Positions 23,219 to 48,217 of a stretch of DNA of 48,217 nt are shown here, one piece after another (positions within the stretch are counted from its first letter, which is position 1; each line of letters opens with the position of its first letter). The DNA comes from a virus, in the IMG/VR virus record IMGVR_UViG_3300036859_000196, positions 1 to 48,217 of that record. One strand, 5' to 3'. The notes beneath the pieces were generated by a model. That model did no database searches, was not told where the DNA came from, and was given only the letters and a program-made list of their open reading frames with translations. The position numbers and the translations under genes were made by a program.

Positions 23219-23247
23219 TTGACGTACTGACCTTGAGCGTCTACATT
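23219..23247 (+). promoter_or_regulatory. Sigma70-like promoter inside the left inverted repeat
   Basis: TTGACG, 17-nt spacer, TACATT upstream of transposase start. Confidence 0.4.
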
Positions 23248-23275
23248 GGCGGTCATGAGATCAGGGGATGCCGCC

Positions 23276-24202
23276 ATGAACCTCACCAATTCGATTTTCC
23301 AGGACGCCGAGAAGGCCCGCGAGTTTCTTGAGGCTCAGCGTTGGCCGGATGGTCCCATTTGCCCCCACTGCGGCGTTATCGCTGACGCCACCAAACTCGC
23401 CGGCAAGAGCACGCGAGCTGGCGTCTACAAGTGCAAGTCTTGCGAGAAGCCTTTCACCGTCACGGTCGGCACCGTATTCGAGCGCTCAAAGATCCCACTC
23501 AACAAGTGGTTGCTGGCGACGTTTCTGCTCACGGCTTCCAAGAAGGGAATGAGCAGCCACCAGATCCACCGTAGTCTGGAGGTTACTTACAAGACCGCTT
23601 GGTTCATGACCCATCGCATCCGCGAGGCCATGCGTGACATCAATGCCGGCCCCATCGGTGGCGAGGGCGGCGACCTGGAGAGCGACGAAACTTACATCGG
23701 CGGCAAGGCCAAGAACGCCCACAAGGGCAAGCCCGAGCCGAAGAAGCATGCCGTGCATGCCCTTGTGGAGCGCGGCGGTCGTGTGCGCGCCACCCATGTC
23801 GCCGACGTGACCGCCAGGACGTTGCGCTCGGTCATGGAGAAGCACGCAGACAAGCGTTCTACGCTTCATACGGACGACGGCCTCACGGGCTTGTCCATTG
23901 GCAAGGACTTCGCCGGCAGCACAACCGTCAACCACAGCGCTGGCGAGTATCACCGCTACAAGGACGGCGCCGGCATCCAATCTGCCGAGAGCTTCTTTGC
24001 GATCCTGAAGCGGCAGGTCTACGGAACGCACCACGCGATCAGCGAGGCGCATCTGCAGCGCTATGTGACGGAAGCCACCTTCAAGTGGAACCACCGCATT
24101 GCGCTGGGCGTGGACGACACCGGCCGCGCCAAGGCTGCTCTCAAGTCCATCGGCGGCAAGCGTTTGACCTATGGGACGATTCGTGGAGCCCAGAACGCCT
24201 AA
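23276..24202 (+). CDS. IS1595-family transposase (ISXO2-like DDE)
   Basis: N-terminal zinc ribbon RWPDGPICPHCG...YKCKSCEKPFTVTVGTVFERSKIPLNKWL then LEVTYKTAWFMTHRIREAM. Confidence 0.85.
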   Translation: MNLTNSIFQDAEKAREFLEAQRWPDGPICPHCGVIADATKLAGKSTRAGVYKCKSCEKPFTVTVGTVFERSKIPLNKWLLATFLLTASKKGMSSHQIHRSLEVTYKTAWFMTHRIREAMRDINAGPIGGEGGDLESDETYIGGKAKNAHKGKPEPKKHAVHALVERGGRVRATHVADVTARTLRSVMEKHADKRSTLHTDDGLTGLSIGKDFAGSTTVNHSAGEYHRYKDGAGIQSAESFFAILKRQVYGTHHAISEAHLQRYVTEATFKWNHRIALGVDDTGRAKAALKSIGGKRLTYGTIRGAQNA

Positions 24203-24500
24203 GCAGAAAGATCGGCGGCGACGCTGCCGATAGTCCCGCTTATCGGCTGCCACCGAATCGTGTCATGAGCCCCATTGCGGCGTTTCTGAGCCAAACGACT
24301 GCGGGAACAATGGGGCTGAGCACGACGGGGATCGTAGCTACACGGACACCTAGATAGGACGCAAAGACAAGCCTTGCGAGGCGGTCTTTGGCGTCCTGCT
24401 CGTCGTGGGCGCGGATCTCGAACTGCCAGACCTTGCCACCGTGGTTGTAGCGGAACAGGTGCGTCTGCATATCGTCAACAACACCAAGAGGTGTGAACAC

Positions 24501-24663: not shown

Positions 24664-24701
24664 CCCAGGAGACAGGAGACCAAGGGGCTCGCTGGCGAGC
24701 A

Positions 24702-24920
24702 TCACCCCTTGGCTCCCTTCCCAGACGAACGGGGGTCGCGCTTCGGCGCGGCCCCTTTCGTTTTCTCTGCTTTATCGACCGGCTTATGCGGTTTGTGAGG
24801 CGTACTGAGCATGCGACGAATCGTGCGCTCAAACTGCTGAGCGTCAATCCCGCCTTTCGCCTCAGTATCTGCCGTACCACGCTTCGGCATCAGACTGTGA
24901 ACCACCTTCAATTTCGACAT
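24702..24920 (-). CDS. Small Lys-rich basic protein, IS passenger
   Basis: Internal Met MSKLKVVHSLMPKRG... of ORF 24702..25118. Confidence 0.3.
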   Translation of the reverse strand: MSKLKVVHSLMPKRGTADTEAKGGIDAQQFERTIRRMLSTPHKPHKPVDKAEKTKGAAPKRDPRSSGKGAKG

Positions 24921-25371
24921 CGATGCGCCCCCAAGAATCTGATGAGTCCAGGGGGGCACGGGGCGTGGGGCCGGCGTAGTGCGGCTGCTGGGCTTCCCAT
25001 CCGGGCGGCCGTGGGTGCAAATCCCACCGGCTCCAGCGCCCCGTGTATCGTCAACCGTTGCATGCAGCTCTGCTGCGTGCAAGCGGGCTATTTGTGCTCT
25101 GACTCGGTAAGCAAGCACTTAACGCCGCATGGCCTCAGTGGTTGCATCGCTCGTCCCCTCGCTTGCCAGCCCGCGCTTCGCGCCGGGCGGTCCCTACCAA
25201 GCTACCGGTTAGTCTCTAGAGCTACCGATGGTGCTTGACTGCCACGATTCGCGGTGGAAGCAAGAGCTTGAAAATTTCACGAATCACTTATTCCGCGAAC
25301 GTGGAATCGATTGGCAACAGTACGTCAAGTATATAATTCCCGGGGAATGGCTGGTGCCGGTACAGGCGGCG

Positions 25372-25701
25372 TCAATCTGCCGCTTGCGCCTCTATGGCGG
25401 CAAGAAAGCCGCCGAGCGCGGAGTATAGTGCGTAGCCGGCGGTCGGGCCTCCCGTAGCGAACCCCAGCCGATTATGGAGCGCACGTAGCCGCTCCAAGGC
25501 GTCTCTCGGGTACTCCGCCTCCCATCCGCCGTTGTAGAATGAGCGGACTGTCCGCACGTCGGTCCTAATGGACTTGCCGGTATAGCTCTGGTCGGGAAAC
25601 CCTGATCCCGTTGGTACCGGCGACACGTGGCTCAGCGTCTCTGTCACTGATGCGCACACGACCATGTAGTCGTGGCGCAGATTGTCGAATGTCGTTATCA
25701 T
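25372..25701 (-). CDS. Hypothetical protein
   Basis: 109-aa ORF directly downstream of HTH gene 25713..26006. Confidence 0.45.
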   Translation of the reverse strand: MITTFDNLRHDYMVVCASVTETLSHVSPVPTGSGFPDQSYTGKSIRTDVRTVRSFYNGGWEAEYPRDALERLRALHNRLGFATGGPTAGYALYSALGGFLAAIEAQAAD

Positions 25702-25712
25702 CGGCCTTTCTC

Positions 25713-26006
25713 CTATCTCTTGGCGGGCAACCTATCCCGCATTTTCTCCATGCACTCGGGGGCCGAAGCCGGCCGCAATGCTTTCGGGGTGCAGACAGCG
25801 AGCAGCTCCGGCCAATCCCCCGGGCGATAGCCGGCGAGGTATGCTGCGACTAGGCGGCGCTGTGCTGGTCTGATCCCACGACGGCCATTCTCCATGTGGT
25901 GTACCTGAGACTTGGCCTGCTCGCCCTCGTATCCCAGCATCATCGCCATCTGCTCAAAAGTAAGGCCCAGATCGCGCCGGGCCCGCTTGAATTCGTCGGG
26001 GGTCAT
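25713..26006 (-). CDS. XRE-family HTH regulator
   Basis: GLTFEQMAMMLGY...ENGRRGIRPAQRRLVAAYLAGYRPGDWP. Confidence 0.6.
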   Translation of the reverse strand: MTPDEFKRARRDLGLTFEQMAMMLGYEGEQAKSQVHHMENGRRGIRPAQRRLVAAYLAGYRPGDWPELLAVCTPKALRPASAPECMEKMRDRLPAKR

Positions 26007-26215
26007 GACTCAGCCGTAGCGGCGGGCCAGCGCGTTGCCCACTCCAGGTCGGGCAAGTCGCCGCTGTCGTCGAGCAGGAACGGCTGCATCGCGATTGTCG
26101 CCCGCGCCTTCACGAGGTCGCAGACGTTGTTGCCGTCGGCAAGCTCGTTGAGCACTTGGCACATGGCGTCTGCCAGTGCCTCAACGTGTGCTTCTGTCGG
26201 TCGCTGCATGCTCAT
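26003..26215 (-). CDS. Hypothetical protein
   Basis: 70-aa ORF, ATGA-coupled to neighbour. Confidence 0.4.
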   Translation of the reverse strand: MSMQRPTEAHVEALADAMCQVLNELADGNNVCDLVKARATIAMQPFLLDDSGDLPDLEWATRWPAATAES

Positions 26216-26265
26216 GGGGCGGGCTCCTTCGTGATGTGGGCGCTGATGATATCAAGGATGGTGGG

Positions 26266-26484
26266 TCATTCCGGCCTCCGAGCACTGGCGATAATGGCGT
26301 CAATCGCCCTGTCAAGCTGGTCGGCGAGATCATCGTTCCGCCCATCCGGGTCGTGCTCGGCCCAAGCAGCTACTGCCGACTCTATCTCACGCTCTACCCG
26401 TCGACGCTCGTCGGCGTCGACAATTGCGGCTACGCGGGCCTTGATTGCTTTCTGGTCGAAGCTGTTCAGATGCGAAATGTCCAT
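26266..26484 (-). CDS. Hypothetical acidic protein
   Basis: 72-aa ORF in minus-strand operon. Confidence 0.4.
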   Translation of the reverse strand: MDISHLNSFDQKAIKARVAAIVDADERRRVEREIESAVAAWAEHDPDGRNDDLADQLDRAIDAIIASARRPE

Positions 26485-26539
26485 TCCGGTTCTCCCTGCA
26501 AAAGAAAAATGGCCGCACCCCGAAGGATGCGGCCCGATC

Positions 26540-26800
26540 TCAGTGTGAGAAGCCCGTCTCCCAGCACCGGGAGCCGTCGCCGCGGGTCACATACTCGCCG
26601 CACTCGGGGCATCCGTAGCGGCGGCCCTTGCGGGCATTGCCGCTGGAGTGACTGTGATCCTCGCTGATCGAAACCAGGCTGAGGTCCACCCAGAATTCCT
26701 TGCTCCCGTCCCAGAATTGGAGCTTGGCCTTCTCCCCGAACTTGGTCTTGCCCGACCAAGCCAGCTTGTACTTGCGACCCTTGTAAGTAGCGACTTGCAT
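26540..26800 (-). CDS. Hypothetical protein with C-terminal zinc-ribbon-like CPEC...C motif
   Basis: 86-aa ORF, lower GC. Confidence 0.4.
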   Translation of the reverse strand: MQVATYKGRKYKLAWSGKTKFGEKAKLQFWDGSKEFWVDLSLVSISEDHSHSSGNARKGRRYGCPECGEYVTRGDGSRCWETGFSH

Positions 26801-26894
26801 TTTTGAACCCCTAGGAAGGAGCGGCTGACAATGATCAATATACTTTCGCGGTCACAGAAAGCCAAGGACGACGAACGGAGGGGCGCCGATCACA

Positions 26895-26921
26895 TTGTTG
26901 TGACTTCTGAAGTCACAACAA
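26895..26921. promoter_or_regulatory. Perfect 27-bp palindrome (13-bp arms), operator candidate
   Basis: TTGTTGTGACTTC-T-GAAGTCACAACAA about 20 bp upstream of the RHH gene. Confidence 0.5.
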
Positions 26922-26941
26922 ATCAGCGACGATTTGCAGCG

Positions 26942-27145
26942 ATGGCGACGACCACACGAAAGCGCATGGGGCGGCCCCCGAAGCCGCCGGAGGCCCGGAT
27001 GATCGATGTCGGTCTGCGGCTCGATCCTGGGACGCATGCAACGGTCACCGCCATGGCGGTTGAGCGCGGCATTGAGCGGGCTGCGATGATCCGCGAATTG
27101 TTGGCGGAGGCGCTCGCTGCGCGGGCGAAGAGGGATAAGAGATGA
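26942..27145 (+). CDS. Ribbon-helix-helix (CopG-like) DNA-binding protein
   Basis: RKRMGRPPK...LRLDPGTHATVTAMAVERGIERAAMIRELLAEAL. Confidence 0.5.
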   Translation: MATTTRKRMGRPPKPPEARMIDVGLRLDPGTHATVTAMAVERGIERAAMIRELLAEALAARAKRDKR

Positions 27146-27157
27146 CCAGTCGTCGCC

Positions 27158-27405
27158 ACATCCGCGAGGCCATGCGTGACATCAATGCCGGCCCCATCGG
27201 TGGCGAGGGCGGCGACCTGGAACGCACCACGCGATCAGCGAGGCGCATCTGCAGCGCTATGTGACGGAAGCCACCTTCAAGTGGAACCACCGCATCGCGC
27301 TTGGCGTAGACGATACTGCTCGTGCCAAGGCCGCTCTCAAGTCCATTGGCGGCAAGCGCTTGACGTACGGGACAACTCGTGGAGCCCAGAACGCCTAAGC
27401 AGCGG
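27158..27405 (+). pseudogene. Internally deleted remnant of the IS1595 transposase gene
   Basis: Near-identical to 23618-23691 joined to 24035-24207 (343-bp internal deletion); no inverted repeats nearby. Confidence 0.7.
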
Positions 27406-27437
27406 GCGCGCAAACGCGGTCGCCCGCCGTAGCCTAA

Positions 27438-27908
27438 CTATGCTGCCTTCGACTTAGCTGACTCGAAATCCAGCTCCACTTTGTCGCCTTGCCAAAGGAC
27501 GATTGGAACCTTCTTCCCATCCGCCTTCACCTCAATCGCGACAATCCCCAACCTCTCTAGGCTGCGCAGCGTGCGAGTTAGATTTGACAGGGCGCGATCT
27601 GACTTCTCAGCCAACTCAGTCAATGACTGAGGCTGTGAATTTCGGATGATCTCCAGCAACAACATGTTCTTCTCGGTCAACACCTTGAAGAGCGCATCTA
27701 GCGACGACACCCAAACCCTCGGCTCGTGGGCCGACGGCTTCTCCCCGCGCGCGATCCTTATCATTCGCTCCCGAACGTAACTGGGCGGAGCGATGCCAAC
27801 TCGCAAAGTCTTCGTTACTGCCACGGCACGCCCTCGTCCTCGTCCGCCGCGTCGCACTCCAGCCATATGATGTCTCGTGTGATGGTGCCGCTCAGTTCTA
27901 CGCTCCAT
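27438..27908 (-). CDS. Winged-helix DNA-binding protein
   Basis: LLLEIIRNSQPQSLTELAEKSDRALSNLTRTLRSLERLGIV; start codon uncertain. Confidence 0.45.
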   Translation of the reverse strand: MERRTERHHHTRHHMAGVRRGGRGRGRAVAVTKTLRVGIAPPSYVRERMIRIARGEKPSAHEPRVWVSSLDALFKVLTEKNMLLLEIIRNSQPQSLTELAEKSDRALSNLTRTLRSLERLGIVAIEVKADGKKVPIVLWQGDKVELDFESAKSKAA

Positions 27909-28060
27909 ATCGCCATCGCCGGCCTTCTCCTACTCGTCGTCATCCGTGTAGCCAACAGCCTCTGGCGTCATGCGCCGCAGCCAGCCACGGCATCGCGGCG
28001 CTCGCCCCCCTGGAGTTTCTTGCCGATGGTGTCGAGTGTATGATCGGTCATCGCGGGGCC

Positions 28061-28366
28061 TCAATCTCTCGTTTCCAGGAACCCAGCAGCGCCGACAGTC
28101 CACGTGAAACCGCCGCGCCGCATCATCTCCTCGAACCCGACAACCTCCTCCTGTCTGATGGTGAGGTCGCCGCACTTGCCGCCGTTGATCCAGACACCAT
28201 AGGTGGTGTGGCCCGGAGTGTCATGCAGGACGCGGAACGAAGCGCTGCGGATGTCCACTTGCTTGTCGCTCTTCGGCATCGCGGGGGGGCATCCTTCGTG
28301 GTGAATGAGTTCTGCTTCAAGCTTCGCGAACAACGCGTGCGGCTCCAAGCTCAGCACGCGCGCCAT
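28061..28366 (-). CDS. Hypothetical protein
   Basis: High third-position GC in minus frame; overlaps upstream gene by 16 nt. Confidence 0.5.
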   Translation of the reverse strand: MARVLSLEPHALFAKLEAELIHHEGCPPAMPKSDKQVDIRSASFRVLHDTPGHTTYGVWINGGKCGDLTIRQEEVVGFEEMMRRGGFTWTVGAAGFLETRD

Positions 28367-28599
28367 CGCGAACACGTGGCGCAGTCCAAGGCATCGTCCC
28401 TAGGGCAGGCGCACTTGATGTCCCGGTCGGCGATCAGCTTCATCGTTCGGCGCTCCGCTGCGTCGAGCGCGAGGCGCACAAGACGGTCAGCCTTCTCTCG
28501 CCCAAGTTCTTTGGTGCATGAGGCATGCAGACTGGCGAGGTTCTTCGCCATGTGGGACGCCCACTCCTCGCCGGACAGTTTCAGCGGCATTTGGCTCAT
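28351..28599 (-). CDS. Cys-rich small protein (C-terminal CxC...CxxC)
   Basis: ATG 28599 with AAGGA RBS; codon bias drops upstream of this start. Confidence 0.45.
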   Translation of the reverse strand: MSQMPLKLSGEEWASHMAKNLASLHASCTKELGREKADRLVRLALDAAERRTMKLIADRDIKCACPRDDALDCATCSRWRAC

Positions 28600-28795
28600 C
28601 CTTGCGCAGTTGGCGGCGAGCCGCACCGAGGACACGTCGCCGGCTCCGTCACATAGTTTTCGGAGGCGCCAGAAGAGGGGATGATCGACCTGACGCGATA
28701 GTGCAGAGAATGTAGTACGTAATCGCGTGGCTGTCAAGTCGCCTCACGAGCTGACACAGCTTGACTCTTGCCGTCGTGTCTGCTATGTGTCAGTC

Positions 28796-28969
28796 ATGAG
28801 CACCATGGCGCGACTCAAGAAGCTGTTTACGCTCTACCTTGACCCTAAGCTGCTGGCGCGGCTGGAAGCGTGGCTGTCCAGGCAGGACGTGCCACCCAGC
28901 AGGACGGCCGTAGTCGAGGCGGCCCTGCGCGAGTTCCTGGAGAAGCGCGAGAAGGGGCGGAAAGCGTGA
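28796..28969 (+). CDS. Ribbon-helix-helix (CopG/Arc-like) protein
   Basis: MARLKKLFTLYLDPKLLARLEAWL...SRTAVVEAALREFLE; TTGACT-17-TATGTG promoter-like upstream. Confidence 0.55.
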   Translation: MSTMARLKKLFTLYLDPKLLARLEAWLSRQDVPPSRTAVVEAALREFLEKREKGRKA

Positions 28970-29055
28970 GCTGCGTCTACGTGACGGCGTGAACTGACGA
29001 GAAGGAATAGGAGGCCGCGTGTGGCGCAACGCCTTGGCGTGCTATCCGGAACAAC

Positions 29056-29286
29056 GTGACCGCCCAGGATGACACCATGCCGAAATTCGACGCTGAGCGC
29101 TACCGCCAGCCGCACGCTGAGGCGACCCTTGCGAGGGTCATCTGGGGCGATGAGTACGGCCCTCAGCCACTGTCGGCGATGGCATGGTGGGAGCAGCTGC
29201 CGGAGCGCCGCAAGCGCATCATCCGAGCGGCGCTGGATGAGATCGCCGGGCTTCCGCGTGAGCGGAAACCCGGAACGCTAAAATAA
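29056..29286 (+). CDS. Hypothetical protein
   Basis: 76-aa ORF. Confidence 0.3.
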   Translation: MTAQDDTMPKFDAERYRQPHAEATLARVIWGDEYGPQPLSAMAWWEQLPERRKRIIRAALDEIAGLPRERKPGTLK

Positions 29287-29298
29287 GGGCCGCCCACC

Positions 29299-29682
29299 AT
29301 GACCGAACGCAAGCCGATACTATGCTTGGATTTTGACGGCGTGATCCACAGCTATACCAGCGGTTGGCAAGGCGCAGACAAGGTGCCTGATCGGCCGGTG
29401 CCTGGCGCCATTGAGTTTCTGGCTGAGGCCGTGCAGCACTTCCGCGTCGCGATCTTTTCGAGCCGCAGCAACCAGCCCGGCGGCTACGAGGCCATGCGGG
29501 CTTGGCTTGAGCGGAACGCGATGGAGAAGCTGCCCGGAAACTTCGAATGGCTTCACGAGATCGAGTGGCCGCTTGAGAAGCCGCCAGCGCTGGTGACCAT
29601 CGACGACCGCGCCATCACCTTCAACGGTACGTGGCCCACCATCGAAGCCATCAAGGGGTTCAAGCCATGGAACAAGCGATAA
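29299..29682 (+). CDS. HAD-superfamily phosphatase-like protein
   Basis: N-terminal ILCLDFDGVIH (HAD motif I DxDG) and later LVTIDDRA. Confidence 0.55.
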   Translation: MTERKPILCLDFDGVIHSYTSGWQGADKVPDRPVPGAIEFLAEAVQHFRVAIFSSRSNQPGGYEAMRAWLERNAMEKLPGNFEWLHEIEWPLEKPPALVTIDDRAITFNGTWPTIEAIKGFKPWNKR

Positions 29683-29894
29683 GAGAGACAGAAAGCCATC
29701 AGGACATGAAATACCGCCACTGGCTCGCGTTGCTCGGTGTCCTGCTCATCGCGGGGTCGCCGTCGGCGCCGTTGCTGGCCGCGGACTGGCTGCCGGTGGC
29801 TGGTCTGTTCATTGGCGCCGGCGTCCTATGCCTGAGCGGCGCCGCTATCATCACGCCAGACGGACAACCGAGTAGGATGAGGAGGCCATGGTGA
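29667..29894 (+). CDS. Small membrane protein (two hydrophobic segments)
   Basis: ATG 29667 overlaps previous gene end. Confidence 0.4.
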   Translation: MEQAIRETESHQDMKYRHWLALLGVLLIAGSPSAPLLAADWLPVAGLFIGAGVLCLSGAAIITPDGQPSRMRRPW

Positions 29895-30347
29895 TCACGA
29901 TAGACGGGCCGCAAGGTCAAGGTGCTCAGGCTACAACCCGGACGTTGGCGAGTACGTGAAGATGGTTGAGATCGACGGCAAGCGACAGATGGCGGTCGGC
30001 GGTCCAGGCCGCTGACGGCTATGGACTGCGCGAGACCGCACCGAGCCGTTGCGCGAGGCGGCGACCAAGGGAGGGTGTCCTGTGCCAGCCGAGACCAGGG
30101 AACGTGAAGACTGGATTGCACGCAACCATGCGCAGTACATGCTAGTCGCCCTGCGGGACATCGCACGAGGTGGCGATGACGGCAAACCAATCGCCGCGAA
30201 GGCGGCGCAAGACCGCGCCCGCCGCGCACTGAAGAATATTGGGCTAGGTTGGCCCTTTTGGGCAAAGCCGAAGCGATAAAGGAGAAGCAGGATGAGCGAC
30301 GAAGGAAGTCGCCGCCGCGCTGCTGGAACGCAAAGGATGAGGAGGCC

Positions 30348-30578
30348 ATGACGCTGGCCGAGATGGTGGTTGAGGTGCGCACCGGCGTTGAGATGTCGCA
30401 AAAGGCATTCGCCTCAGCACTCGGTTTCTCGCCGCAGTACCTCTGCGACTTGGAGCACGGTCGGCGTCCGGGCTCTGTCGAATTTGTCAACCGCCTTTGT
30501 GATTGGATGGGGCGTGGCCCGAAGGGTCGCAAGGAATGGCACATGGCCGGTGCGCGGTCGCACGGCTGGGAAGTATAG
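30348..30578 (+). CDS. XRE-family HTH regulator
   Basis: MSQKAFASALGFSPQYLCDLEHGRRPGSVEFVNRL. Confidence 0.5.
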   Translation: MTLAEMVVEVRTGVEMSQKAFASALGFSPQYLCDLEHGRRPGSVEFVNRLCDWMGRGPKGRKEWHMAGARSHGWEV

Positions 30579-30590
30579 GATAGGGAGCCA

Positions 30591-30815
30591 ATGAATCCGG
30601 AAGTCCACTGCGCGACCTGCGGGCGCACCAAAGACCCGATGCAACACATGCGTGCCGACCATCCGCCGACTGCGGCGAAAGCGTGGCTAAAGCGCACGTG
30701 CAAACGCGAGGGCAAGCCGTGTGAGTTTGGCTATCGGGCCGGCGTTGACGTAGAAGGCCTGCGCCGGGCTCTGAAGCGCGGGACAACCGAACAGAGCAAG
30801 GATGAGGAGCGCTGA
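30591..30815 (+). CDS. Hypothetical Cys-containing protein
   Basis: 74-aa ORF. Confidence 0.3.
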   Translation: MNPEVHCATCGRTKDPMQHMRADHPPTAAKAWLKRTCKREGKPCEFGYRAGVDVEGLRRALKRGTTEQSKDEER

Positions 30816-30985
30816 CATGCCGCTGTGCGAGCATAGGCAATGGGTCGGTTCCTGCGATAGGTGCCGCATCCGGGATGGCGAACTTGGTGCTCATCGGGCC
30901 GCCTCCGCACCCGGAGCATCGGCAAAGTCGGTACATCTGTCCCGACCAACATCCGCGCGTCGGTTAATCTTTCCCTTGGAAATCA

Positions 30986-31035
30986 TGGCGGTCCCGGCAG
31001 GGCTTGAACCCGCAACCTCCGCGTTCGAAGCGCGG
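30986..31035 (-). other. attP core: 3' ~50-nt fragment of a tRNA-Arg(UCG)-like gene
   Basis: Minus strand reads anticodon stem-loop CCGCG-CTTCGAA-CGCGG, T-arm GCGGG-TTCAAGC-CCTGC, acceptor 3' strand, CCA; no D-arm or 5' acceptor strand. Confidence 0.55.
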
Positions 31036-31120
31036 CCACACGGCGCCACATGTGTGATTTTGCTGGGGTTTTTCGCGCGCATCGTCGTCCAAATCGCCCG
31101 CTCTTCGCATTTCGTTCTCG

Positions 31121-31936
31121 CTAGGTCGGTTCACATGAACCGACCAACGTCCGCGTATCCGAGAAGCGGGGGGGGGCCGCAGGGGTGCTGGCGAGTTCAC
31201 CCACCATCCACTTCGCGGCATCGGCCTTGATCTGCTCGAACACGACGGGGTGCTGGCTCTTGAAGTCCGGCATGCGCGACGACGCCACGTATCCCTGCGC
31301 GGTCGCGTCGAGCCAAATCTGCGTCCAGCGCGCCGCGTCGAGTCCGAGCAGTTTGAAGTCGCGTCGCGTCACGGGTCTCCGCTCCAGAATGGCAACGATC
31401 TTGAGCGCCTTGATCTTCCACGCCGTCAGTTGGACCGGGGCACTATGGCCGGCGCCGCTGTCGGGGACATAGTCAGGGAGGGCGACCCGCTTCACCGGGC
31501 ACCACTCGTGCCAATGTCGGTCATCGCCCCAGCGCTCGGCGACGTGCGGCAGATCGGGTTCGAACCTGCGGCGGTAGACCCGCTCGGACGGTGGCCATAT
31601 CGTTATCACAGTGAGTCCGAGCCAGTTGCAGATCGTGCCGAGCCCGTTCTGCTTTCCTCCTTCTGGCACCAGCACGGCACGACAATCCGGGCCGATCTCG
31701 GCGGCTCCGTACCAACGTTCGGGCAGCGCCTGCACCGCCACCGTGTTGTTGAGGATGAGCTTGGCCTCGATGCCAATCTGGAAGCCGTCTTCCCTGCGAA
31801 CGAGCAGGATGTCCCAGCCGCCAGTCTCGGCATACGCAACCCAGGCGTCACCCTTTGTGACCTGCGTGATGAACTCGGCGCAGAGCGCGACCTCGCTCTC
31901 GAAACCGGGCTTGCGGGATCGCTTCGTGGCCGTCAT
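31121..31936 (-). CDS. Hypothetical protein with PD-(D/E)xK nuclease-like motif
   Basis: Starts at ATG overlapping integrase stop; motif DILLVRREDGFQIGIEAKL; G9 tract encodes PPP near C-terminus. Confidence 0.45.
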   Translation of the reverse strand: MTATKRSRKPGFESEVALCAEFITQVTKGDAWVAYAETGGWDILLVRREDGFQIGIEAKLILNNTVAVQALPERWYGAAEIGPDCRAVLVPEGGKQNGLGTICNWLGLTVITIWPPSERVYRRRFEPDLPHVAERWGDDRHWHEWCPVKRVALPDYVPDSGAGHSAPVQLTAWKIKALKIVAILERRPVTRRDFKLLGLDAARWTQIWLDATAQGYVASSRMPDFKSQHPVVFEQIKADAAKWMVGELASTPAAPPRFSDTRTLVGSCEPT

Positions 31937-46245: not shown

Positions 46246-47527
46246 CCTGAGCGGCGACGAGCTCGCCCACATCGAGCACGACTGGCGCTTCTGGGCTCGC
46301 GACGAGCAACTCGCACCGCCGGGCCTGTGGCGCATATGGCTGCTGCTGGCCGGACGCGGCTTCGGCAAGACCCGCGTCGGTGCCGAGTGGTGCCACGAAC
46401 GCGCCGCCGAGTCCGTCTGCCGCATCGCCATCGTCGGCGCCACGATGGACGACGCCCGCAAGATCTGCGTCGATGGCGAGTCCGGCATCATGGCGTGCGC
46501 CAAGCCGTGGTTCCGCCCGACCTTCGAGCCGTCGAAGAACGGCGGCACGGTGACGTGGCCCAACGGCTCGCTGGCCGAACTCTACTCGGGCGAGAAGCCG
46601 GACGGCCTGCGCGGGCCGCAGTTCCATGCGGCGTGGCTCGACGAGCTGCTGAAGTGGCGCCGCATGCAGGCGGCCTGGGACATGCTCAGGTTCGCGCTGC
46701 GGCTTGGCACTCACCCGCGCACCGTGATAACCACCACGCCGACGCCAGCGAAGCTGATCAAGGACCTGGTCAATGACAAGCGCACGGGGGCGGACGGTTT
46801 GCCCATGGTGCGCGTAGTGCGCGGCTCGACCTACGCCAACGCCGCCAACCTATCGGCCGACGCCCTCGACGAACTGCGCACCAAGTACGAGGGCACCCGC
46901 CTCGGCCGGCAGGAGCTGTTCGGCGAGATCCTCGAAGACCGCCCCGGCGCGCTCTGGACATATGCCAACATCGACGAGCACCGCATCAATGACCCGGAAC
47001 AGGTCCCCAAGCTTGAGCGCACCATCGTCGCCATCGATCCTCCCGTCACTTCGGGCGAGGATGCCGACGAGTGCGGCATCGTCGCCGCCGGGCGGGGGCC
47101 GCACTCGCACGCCTACGTGCTCGGCGATGCGTCCGAGCGGGGCCTCTCGCCTAAGCAATGGGCTCAGAAGGCGCTTCGGCTTTACCACGACACCGGTGCG
47201 GGCCTGATCGTCGCCGAGGCCAACAACGGCGGCGAGATGATCAAGCACGTGATCAACACCGAGGCGCCGGAGGTCAAGGTCAAACTGGTGCACGCTAGCA
47301 AGGGCAAGGTCACCCGCGCCGAGCCGGTGTCGAGCCTCTACGAGCAAGGCCGAGTGCACCACGTCGGCACCTTCAAGGCGCTCGAAGATCAGCAAACTGA
47401 CTTTACTGTGGATTGGGACCGCGACGTGATGGGCTACTCGCCCGACCGCGTCGACGCCCTGGTGTGGGCGATCACCGAACTGATGCTGGCCAACCGCGCC
47501 CGCGGCGGCCTTGTGGGGACGTTCTGA
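46181..47527 (+). CDS. terL: Terminase large subunit (GTA-like family)
   Basis: N-terminal LSGDELAHIEHDWRFWARDEQLAPPGLWRIWLLLAGRGFGKTR (Walker A-like); GTG start overlapping terS. Confidence 0.85.
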   Translation: MELRASSIASLPPSKRQAFLDSLSGDELAHIEHDWRFWARDEQLAPPGLWRIWLLLAGRGFGKTRVGAEWCHERAAESVCRIAIVGATMDDARKICVDGESGIMACAKPWFRPTFEPSKNGGTVTWPNGSLAELYSGEKPDGLRGPQFHAAWLDELLKWRRMQAAWDMLRFALRLGTHPRTVITTTPTPAKLIKDLVNDKRTGADGLPMVRVVRGSTYANAANLSADALDELRTKYEGTRLGRQELFGEILEDRPGALWTYANIDEHRINDPEQVPKLERTIVAIDPPVTSGEDADECGIVAAGRGPHSHAYVLGDASERGLSPKQWAQKALRLYHDTGAGLIVAEANNGGEMIKHVINTEAPEVKVKLVHASKGKVTRAEPVSSLYEQGRVHHVGTFKALEDQQTDFTVDWDRDVMGYSPDRVDALVWAITELMLANRARGGLVGTF

Positions 47528-47529
47528 TG
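47357..47529 (+). repeat. 173-bp direct repeat, copy B (3' end of terL)
   Basis: Identical to 48045..48217; its last 127 nt equal window 1..127. Confidence 0.85.
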
Positions 47530-48044: not shown

Positions 48045-48217
48045 CACCACGTCGGCACCTTCAAGGCGCTCGAAGATCAGCAAACTGACTTTACTGTGGA
48101 TTGGGACCGCGACGTGATGGGCTACTCGCCCGACCGCGTCGACGCCCTGGTGTGGGCGATCACCGAACTGATGCTGGCCAACCGCGCCCGCGGCGGCCTT
48201 GTGGGGACGTTCTGATG
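48045..48217 (+). repeat. 173-bp direct repeat, copy C (terL 3' end remnant)
   Basis: Identical to 47357..47529; continues as window 1..127. Confidence 0.85.

Follow-up and report, generated by a model that had tools for sequence, protein, structure and literature searches.

Probable phage mosaicism and an orphan TumA-type antitoxin gene behind an apparent three-gene operon

What are the three co-oriented minus-strand open reading frames (ORFs) at positions 27438-28599 of the viral record IMGVR_UViG_3300036859_000196, a stretch of 48,217 nucleotides (nt) that we refer to as the window? An earlier note, made from the sequence alone, had described them as an operon of overlapping genes with the architecture of a toxin-antitoxin or small defence module. 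Our analysis leads to another answer. We consider it likely, with a probability of roughly 0.78, that the locus is made up of three unrelated cassettes in the accessory arm of a temperate phage, one of them being tumA, an antitoxin gene orphaned by the deletion of its toxin gene, tumE. Nothing in our data points to the three genes forming a toxin-antitoxin or defence system; we read the locus as common phage mosaicism, together with an orphan antitoxin from a family already described.

The three genes and the orphan tumA

The ORF listing of the region contains minus-strand frames at 28351-28737, 28061-28375 and 27438-27908, to which we refer as gene A (A' in the form found here), gene B and tumA, the winged helix-turn-helix (wHTH) gene. 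The three co-oriented genes announced earlier are present, but two of their models were wrong. The coding-type codon usage ascribed to them holds: the third-position GC content of the refined genes A, B and tumA is 0.78, 0.78 and 0.69, which fits coding DNA, and the pairwise ratios of nonsynonymous to synonymous substitution (dN/dS) against their homologues are 0.07-0.09, 0.18 and 0.07-0.19, respectively. Judged by these values, the three are real genes whose homologues are under purifying selection.

Next, we compared the window with 41 related loci. Gene A occurs only in L004-L006, gene B only in L002, L003, L007 and L038-L041, and tumA only in L008-L037; no two of the three genes are found together in any of the 41 loci. 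A megablast search with the 22-34 kb segment returned no match among deposited phages and plasmids. The breakpoints between the cassettes could be placed within a few bases: the similarity of gene A' to its closest relative, L006, ends at ~28377, a stump of an XRE-family repressor gene occupies 28377-28271, the homology of gene B to its closest relative, L038, spans 28048-28279 only, and that of tumA ends at 27838 (or 27841).

The third gene is tumA (27438-27824, minus strand), an intact gene for a wHTH antitoxin of 128 amino acids (aa). No family had been assigned to any of the three genes, and this still applies to A and B; the wHTH protein, on the contrary, matches the Pfam family HVO_A0114 (PF25212) with an E-value of 6.9e-19 and 67.9 bits against a cut-off of 27.6, besides MarR (2e-8) and, over residues 33-151 of the long ORF, phrog_11214 (1.2e-19). 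A further match, to phrog_10699 (E 1.4e-3), fell on the spurious N-terminal extension of the ORF and was disregarded. Because the 48 TumA homologues are 125-130 aa long, we placed the start at the GTG at 27824. The protein keeps all the invariant columns of the family and is 90-93% identical to copies that are paired with TumE; the value is 90% for P0025, which is encoded by a gene overlapping that of a complete TumE. The changes specific to the window lineage are three synonymous and no non-synonymous ones, too few to inform dN/dS, and a tblastn search of 50,697 deposited phage genomes with TumA found no homologue. As a candidate intrinsic terminator for tumA we considered the hairpin that follows its stop, which reaches −27 kcal/mol with a z-score of −1.3 and without a U-tract. 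On sequence grounds, we identify the wHTH protein as the TumA-type antitoxin of the two-gene TumE-TumA family, with its toxin deleted. Durairaj et al. (2023, PMC10584680) present TumE-TumA as an experimentally validated, translation-targeting type II toxin-antitoxin family.

What remains of the toxin gene are its last codons (EGVPWQ*, 27815-27838, minus strand), recognized in alignments with L014, L011, L008 and L009; the surviving piece amounts to ~15-20 nt, or about six codons. In blastn, the similarity of seven tumA loci (L011, L014, L015, L020, L021, L022 and L024) to the window stops at 27838; for three others it stops at 27841. The window still has the GAGGG Shine-Dalgarno sequence of tumA and the stop/start overlap of 10 nt inherited from the ancestral locus (GTGGCAGTAA), and the overlap partner of tumA is now a chimeric 33-aa ORF (27815-27916) that terminates in the tumE remnant. 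A six-frame hmmsearch (--max) of the whole 48 kb with a TumE hidden Markov model (HMM) gave a best E-value of only 0.76, and neither the ORFs nor the stop-repaired translation of 27815-28051 matched TumE (PF20126) in Pfam.

Between gene B and tumA lies a spacer of 222 nt (27839-28060, minus strand) with two small in-frame ORFs, 27968-28051 (27 aa) and the 33-aa one, split by a single TGA. The spacer has no Pfam hit and no relative in the fetched loci or in metagenome contigs, which were scanned with its stop-repaired translation; its small ORFs yielded nothing useful in Pfam, NCBIfam, PHROGs or PADLOC. We also considered the spacer as a frameshifted TumE gene and rejected this, since alignment is confined to the last ~6 codons and none of five tumE genes is homologous to the window upstream of 27838.

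In the relatives, the ORF that overlaps tumA upstream by ~10 nt is the toxin gene. It matches Pfam TumE in L008 (5e-10) and L009 (4e-8), it is precomputed as PF20126 in L014 and L015, where TumA is 90% identical to that of the window, and three plasmids label it a 'DUF6516 family protein'; the TumE of L014 is intact, with 97 aa, and its gene shows the identical 10-nt overlap. Our TumE HMM, built from the relatives' TumE seeds and used to scan 29 relative loci, detected an upstream TumE in 23. About 17 of these are intact, one is cut by the contig end (L024) and five are frameshifted, fused or truncated (L011, L020, L022, L016 and L033); none was detected in L028, L029, L031 or L037, nor in L012 and L013, where tumA is truncated. 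TumE is broken or missing in about one third of the related loci, most of these outside phages; three of the four IMG/VR contigs with a TumA homologue still have it. In L020 (1829-2878) and L011 (1678-2349) the TumE frame enters the TumA frame after a shift near 'EDFWT', producing one long fusion ORF, which may stem from a sequencing error or from decay, or may be a true variant fused in cis; PMC10584680 mentions a subcluster in which the antitoxin is fused in this way.

The probable regulatory DNA of the pair is also gone from the window. In 11 diverged loci, which include plasmids and viral contigs as well as Alpha- and Gammaproteobacteria, a palindrome (n)TTATCA-N5-TGATAA(n) lies at the tumE start, 377-401 nt upstream of tumA (L008 3609-3627, L014 135-153, L020 2098-2116, L021 2608, L017 1108 and L018 1118; also in L025, L026, L030 and L034). 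It is probably the TumA operator; the available text of PMC10584680 contains no mention of it. The palindrome is absent from the window even at three mismatches. The bicistronic arrangement with an autoregulated promoter is therefore not found here, as the overlap is kept with a chimeric ORF and the palindrome is gone. When compared with the described TumE-TumA systems (PMC10584680), the window shares the HVO_A0114 protein, the stop/start overlap and the ribosome-binding site, but it lacks the toxin gene, the promoter and the palindromic operator and cannot function as a pair. The gene order differs as well: this subfamily has the toxin first, whereas the same paper places it predominantly downstream of its partner.

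On its other side, tumA is linked to an insertion sequence (IS). As had been noted, an IS remnant lies beside the three genes, at 27159-27402 (plus strand), 36 nt from the tumA stop and abutting the stop of the ribbon-helix-helix (RHH)-like gene RHH1. It belongs to the IS1595 family and was defined by its identity to an apparently intact transposase (tnp) gene at 23246-24202 (plus strand; Pfam DDE_Tnp_IS1595 1.1e-28, Zn_ribbon_IS1595 7.4e-12), which lies ~3 kb away in the same accessory segment: 27159-27221 (63 nt) is 100% identical to 23617-23679 and 27219-27402 (184 nt) is 91.8% identical to 24023-24206, the tnp 3' end. The remnant is 5'-truncated, has an internal deletion of ~340 nt and covers about tnp residues 123-145 and 266-318. 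While the full copy has both the Zn ribbon and the DDE domain of its family, the remnant, a clear derivative of it, does not contain the complete DDE transposase with N-terminal Zn ribbon and cannot transpose. IS1595 terminal inverted repeats were looked for and not found.

The same IS end abuts tumA, 0-45 nt past its stop, in L008, L011, L020, L021 and L022, and in these five loci the homology around tumA runs downstream into it. The IS is full-length in L008 (4442-5374), cut by the contig end in L021 (3422-4026), where it is 83% identical in nucleotides to the intact copy of the window, and reduced to stumps in L020 (2912-2971) and L011 (2344-2401). Since the same end adjoins tumA in all five, tumE-tumA-IS1595 may be taken as the ancestral block of this clade, which suggests that the toxin-antitoxin pair and the IS travel together. 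The closest TumA copies (90-93% identity) are on contigs of metagenome-assembled genomes of Hyphomicrobiaceae, two of which also carry the chromosomal genes TruA or CN-hydrolase, and this suggests that Hyphomicrobiaceae are the hosts and also supplied the block. Moreover, a segment 'X' of the window (24675-25341) is 80% identical to the DNA flanking tumE in the Hyphomicrobiaceae contig L021, with its first 85 nt 85% identical to L008, and here it adjoins the intact IS without tumEA between them. A host-like locus thus appears to have been split into two partial copies in the phage.

From these observations we propose that the phage would have acquired tumA within a tumE-tumA-IS1595 block like those in Hyphomicrobiaceae chromosomes, and that the toxin gene, along with its promoter and operator, and the greater part of the IS would have been lost in later deletions. 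This would leave a fragment of 680 nt (27159-27838) with tumA as the sole intact gene, whose predicted product is the wHTH antitoxin of a type II TumE-TumA pair and probably also an autorepressor. If expressed, by read-through and coupled translation, phage TumA could act only in trans, presumably on host TumE toxins and host tumEA operators.

Genes A' and B and the XRE stump

Gene A' (28351-28590, minus strand) encodes a small phage protein of 79 aa and is, as far as its homologies indicate, a truncated gene fused out of frame to the XRE stump. Four homologue clusters (P0021-P0024) share a core of ~55 residues, MPLKLSGEEW...AERRTMKLI, followed by unrelated C-termini. Because this core begins with MPLKLSGEEW, we set the start at the ATG at 28590, as in P0022-P0024, and not where the earlier 82-aa model had it. 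Homology to the relatives covers 28377-28590 only; the DNA is 85% identical to L006 from the start codon to 'CTGCGCCA' and the similarity then ends. The terminal TCSRWRAC* is read from XRE DNA out of frame, because the L001-like XRE stretch begins at ~28377. This also disposes of the label 'Cys-rich': the only Cys invariant among five members of the A family is C25 of the 79-aa protein, the C-terminal Cys come in part from out-of-frame XRE DNA and are not conserved in the family, and no conserved Cys/His metal-binding pattern was found in gene A'. AlphaFold 2 (AF2) predicted, with a predicted local distance difference test (pLDDT) score of 74, helices at residues 7-29 and 31-58 forming a two-helix hairpin, and a disordered tail. 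Pfam, NCBIfam and PADLOC were without a match for gene A, and PHROGs gave nothing useful for A or B. Another cassette lies downstream in the same arm: a 70-aa gene at 26003-26215 (minus strand) is 87% identical in DNA to part of an L004 gene (4922-5063), and L004, which has a gene A homologue in the same order, is the sole relative that shares two cassettes with the window.

The stump itself (28283-28376, minus strand) is the 3' remnant, the last ~29 codons, of an XRE-family helix-turn-helix (HTH) repressor gene. The 110-aa protein P0020, which has the HTH_3/HTH_31 domain, matches residues 1-28 only of the 104-aa ORF that precedes the spacer, and 28271-28377 of the window is 94-97% identical over ~105 nt to L001, an unrelated phage-like contig, with both flanks diverging. 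The HTH_3/HTH_31 domain is absent from the '101/104-aa' ORF (no Pfam hit), as the remnant corresponds to codons downstream of the HTH.

The 101-aa model proposed for the second gene has to be shortened to 72 aa (28061-28279, minus strand). All of its 18 homologues, of 60-99 aa, align only to the C-terminal 72 residues, from MPKSDKQ. Because the first 28-32 residues of the 104-aa ORF are the XRE stump read in frame, the overlap of genes A and B is an artefact; with tumA starting 236 nt from B, the description of the three genes as overlapping does not stand. Gene B belongs to a rare family, with 52 clusters at E <= 1e-3 among 1.84 billion representatives, none in 185,579 GTDB reference species genomes and one in IMG/VR. 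AF2 gave a confident beta-beta-beta-alpha fold (pLDDT 84), and no known fold relative and no match in Pfam, NCBIfam or PADLOC were obtained. In its relatives L002 and L038-L041 it lies in long same-strand arrays of small phage genes; in the viral contig L007, B is part of a DNA-metabolism module, flanked by genes for a Zn-finger protein and an ATPase and close to a nuclease-like gene. By sequence conservation, B represents an uncharacterised conserved family of ~70-aa phage proteins.

The three genes could nonetheless share a transcript. A sigma-70-like promoter candidate, TTGACA-17-TACATT (10 of 12 consensus positions), lies upstream of gene A at 28709-28737 (minus strand), in the divergent region facing the RHH-like gene RHH2, and is the top promoter-like match in 25000-31500. 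Prediction placed no terminator-like site between A and tumA on their strand, and co-transcription of A, B and tumA from this candidate is plausible.

Relic, module, counter-measure or artefact

Since no toxin is present, the locus cannot work as an addiction or abortive-infection module. A decaying toxin-antitoxin insertion is the default expectation, because loss of the toxin is tolerated and loss of the antitoxin is not, and the broken or missing TumE of about one third of the related loci follows the same course. Several observations weigh against our reading of the locus as three unrelated cassettes with an orphaned tumA. A neutral relic need not be as fully intact as tumA, which has also kept its ribosome-binding site, and this leaves room for selection. 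The spacer is not accounted for by the three cassettes, and its chimeric 33-aa ORF, whose translation is coupled to that of tumA, may be a genuine small gene. The promoter is a consensus match only, with three such sites found against 1.5 expected in shuffled sequences. With two IS copies, and with segment 'X' beside tumE in L021 and L008 and beside the intact IS here, further rearrangement must have occurred. Finally, the window is a metagenome assembly with repeats, although the exact internal repeat is of 63 nt only.

That last point bears on the idea that the contig is chimeric at the IS1595 repeats, tumA and the phage genes being unlinked. Two IS1595 segments 3 kb apart sharing 63 exact nt, together with exact terminal and internal repeats of 127-173 nt near the contig ends, are what such an artefact might leave; but the toxin-side breakpoint at 27838 lies outside any repeat, the remnant is 92% and not 100% identical over its main 184 nt and has an internal deletion of its own, as a distinct decayed copy would, and 63 nt is shorter than the 127-nt terminal overlap, which is suggestive of the assembler's k-mer. 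We regard this as most unlikely, and equally so the functional three-gene toxin-antitoxin or defence operon of the earlier note, with A and B working alongside a wHTH regulator. The common strand, the close spacing, the plausible common promoter, the membership of the wHTH protein in an antitoxin family and the frequent presence of defence genes in phage accessory regions would all fit it. What stood of this proposal is that the wHTH gene encodes a TumA-type antitoxin; A and B, as independent cassettes of the phage early region, are not its partners and its natural partner, TumE, is deleted. The apparent overlap comes from the XRE stump, A' is a truncated chimera, the three genes never co-occur in the relatives, and the A and B families live in phage arrays of small genes without TumA. 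The HMM search against defence profiles that had been suggested gave nothing for A, B or the small ORFs in PADLOC-DB v2 (as in Pfam and NCBIfam for A and B), and the matches of TumA were generic ones, confined to the wHTH portion of Csa3/CARF/CasR models (best E 1.4e-6).

A more serious competitor, which we still hold to be unlikely, is that orphan tumA was selected as a counter-measure or anti-addiction factor that would bind host TumE and repress the host tumEA operator in Hyphomicrobiaceae, preventing growth arrest. The deletion spared the ORF, the Shine-Dalgarno sequence and the coupled stop/start while cutting the toxin to its last ~15-20 nt; all invariant residues are present, identity to TumE-paired copies in the probable host lineage is 90-93%, and dN/dS is 0.07-0.19. 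As the putative operator is found in 11 loci and not in the phage, any DNA target would be the host's. Orphan antitoxins are also known from anti-addiction modules. There is a precedent in phage orphan antitoxin-like enzymes that counter the DarTG1 toxin-antitoxin defence (PMC11825919), to which the window is alike in having an intact phage-borne antitoxin gene without its toxin, near-identical to paired antitoxins in the probable host lineage; it is unlike them in that the DarTG1 antitoxin is enzymatic, whereas TumA is a predicted toxin-binding wHTH protein. On the other hand, TumE-TumA is not known to be an anti-phage system, neutral decay is expected to pass through orphan antitoxins and the related loci with a broken or missing TumE are mostly non-phage, three of the four IMG/VR contigs with TumA keep TumE, none of the deposited phage genomes has a homologue, and pairwise dN/dS mostly records the history preceding toxin loss. 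It is likewise improbable, in our estimate, that a temperate phage infecting Hyphomicrobiaceae took the antitoxin half from the IS1595-linked tumE-tumA locus of its host and keeps TumA to disarm TumE in infection or lysogeny; if this were true, TumE-TumA would be an anti-phage or anti-mobile-element system and this tumA its first known counter-defence.

For annotation, our reading means that, of the gene overlap, the Cys-richness and the wHTH neighbour that suggested a novel module, the first two are recombination scars. It also offers, at base-level resolution of the breakpoints, a decay course in which an IS-linked TumE-TumA module in a phage lost its toxin first and kept its antitoxin intact, and it makes the TumA of the window a candidate orphan antitoxin and a possible anti-TumE factor. 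The by-products of the comparison are a likely TumA operator in Alpha- and Gammaproteobacteria, the recurrent linkage of tumEA with IS1595 and the small conserved phage family B.

Phage context and neighbouring features

The window encodes portal, major head, tape-measure and tail-fibre proteins and an integrase, together with a GH108 endolysin, TerL, an S24 CI-like repressor and DUF1376. Exact repeats connect its ends, with 1-127 identical to 48091-48217 and to 47403-47529, and 47357-47529 identical to 48045-48217. We read the contig as an entire temperate phage genome of ~48 kb, either circular or with terminal redundancy. An integrated prophage with a host flank at 33-48 kb was considered and rejected, given that TerL, the S24 repressor and DUF1376 lie there and that the contig ends are identical over 127 nt. 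The additional direct repeat of 173 nt, which spans the 3' end of TerL and the 5' region of the portal gene with its copies 688 nt apart, could also be an assembly quirk.

We infer that the locus lies in a non-essential accessory arm between the lysis genes and attP-int. GC content is 61-62% at the locus and 61% over 23-31 kb, compared with ~66% elsewhere in the window. Temperate phages carry mosaic accessory segments ('morons', or segments like the lambda b region). This arm resembles them in its separate cassettes, its homologies ending near gene boundaries, its differing neighbours and its stumps of replaced genes, and its lower-GC segment between the lysis genes and attP-int recalls the lambda b region; it differs in holding an apparently intact IS1595 and a decayed second copy. 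In our impression, phage genomes rarely carry IS elements. At 30989-31047 (minus strand), a tRNA-like fragment scored 30.8 bits with Rfam RF00005 against a gathering score of 29, with no call from ARAGORN; placed between the accessory genes and the integrase region, it is probably the tRNA-derived core of attP.

The claim that the three genes are bracketed by RHH regulator genes holds as far as RHH-like ORFs are present on both sides, but neither reaches the Pfam RHH_1 gathering score. RHH1 (26942-27145, plus strand), convergent with tumA, is a weak RHH_1 match (E 0.023) with phrog_4738, a transcriptional repressor, at 6e-4; RHH2 (28796-28969, plus strand), divergent from gene A, matches RHH_1 at E 6e-4 with 20.1 bits against a cut-off of 20.5. 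A perfect 13-bp palindrome with a 1-nt spacer (TTGTTGTGACTTC G GAAGTCACAACAA) lies at 26895-26921, ~20 nt upstream of the likely RHH1 start (ATG 26942), and is a probable operator. Further along, an 86-aa Zn-ribbon-like gene (26540-26800), with a promoter-like site at 26865-26837, is directly followed by a strong intrinsic-terminator-like hairpin at 26511-26534 (minus strand) with a 10-bp stem, eight of its pairs GC, and then ATTTTTCTTT; this gene looks like a self-contained moron. On the opposite side, a gene for a 127-aa HAD-like phosphatase (29299-29682, plus strand; phrog_23773 1e-21, Pfam HAD_SAK_2 weak) sits in the rightward accessory operon that begins with RHH2.

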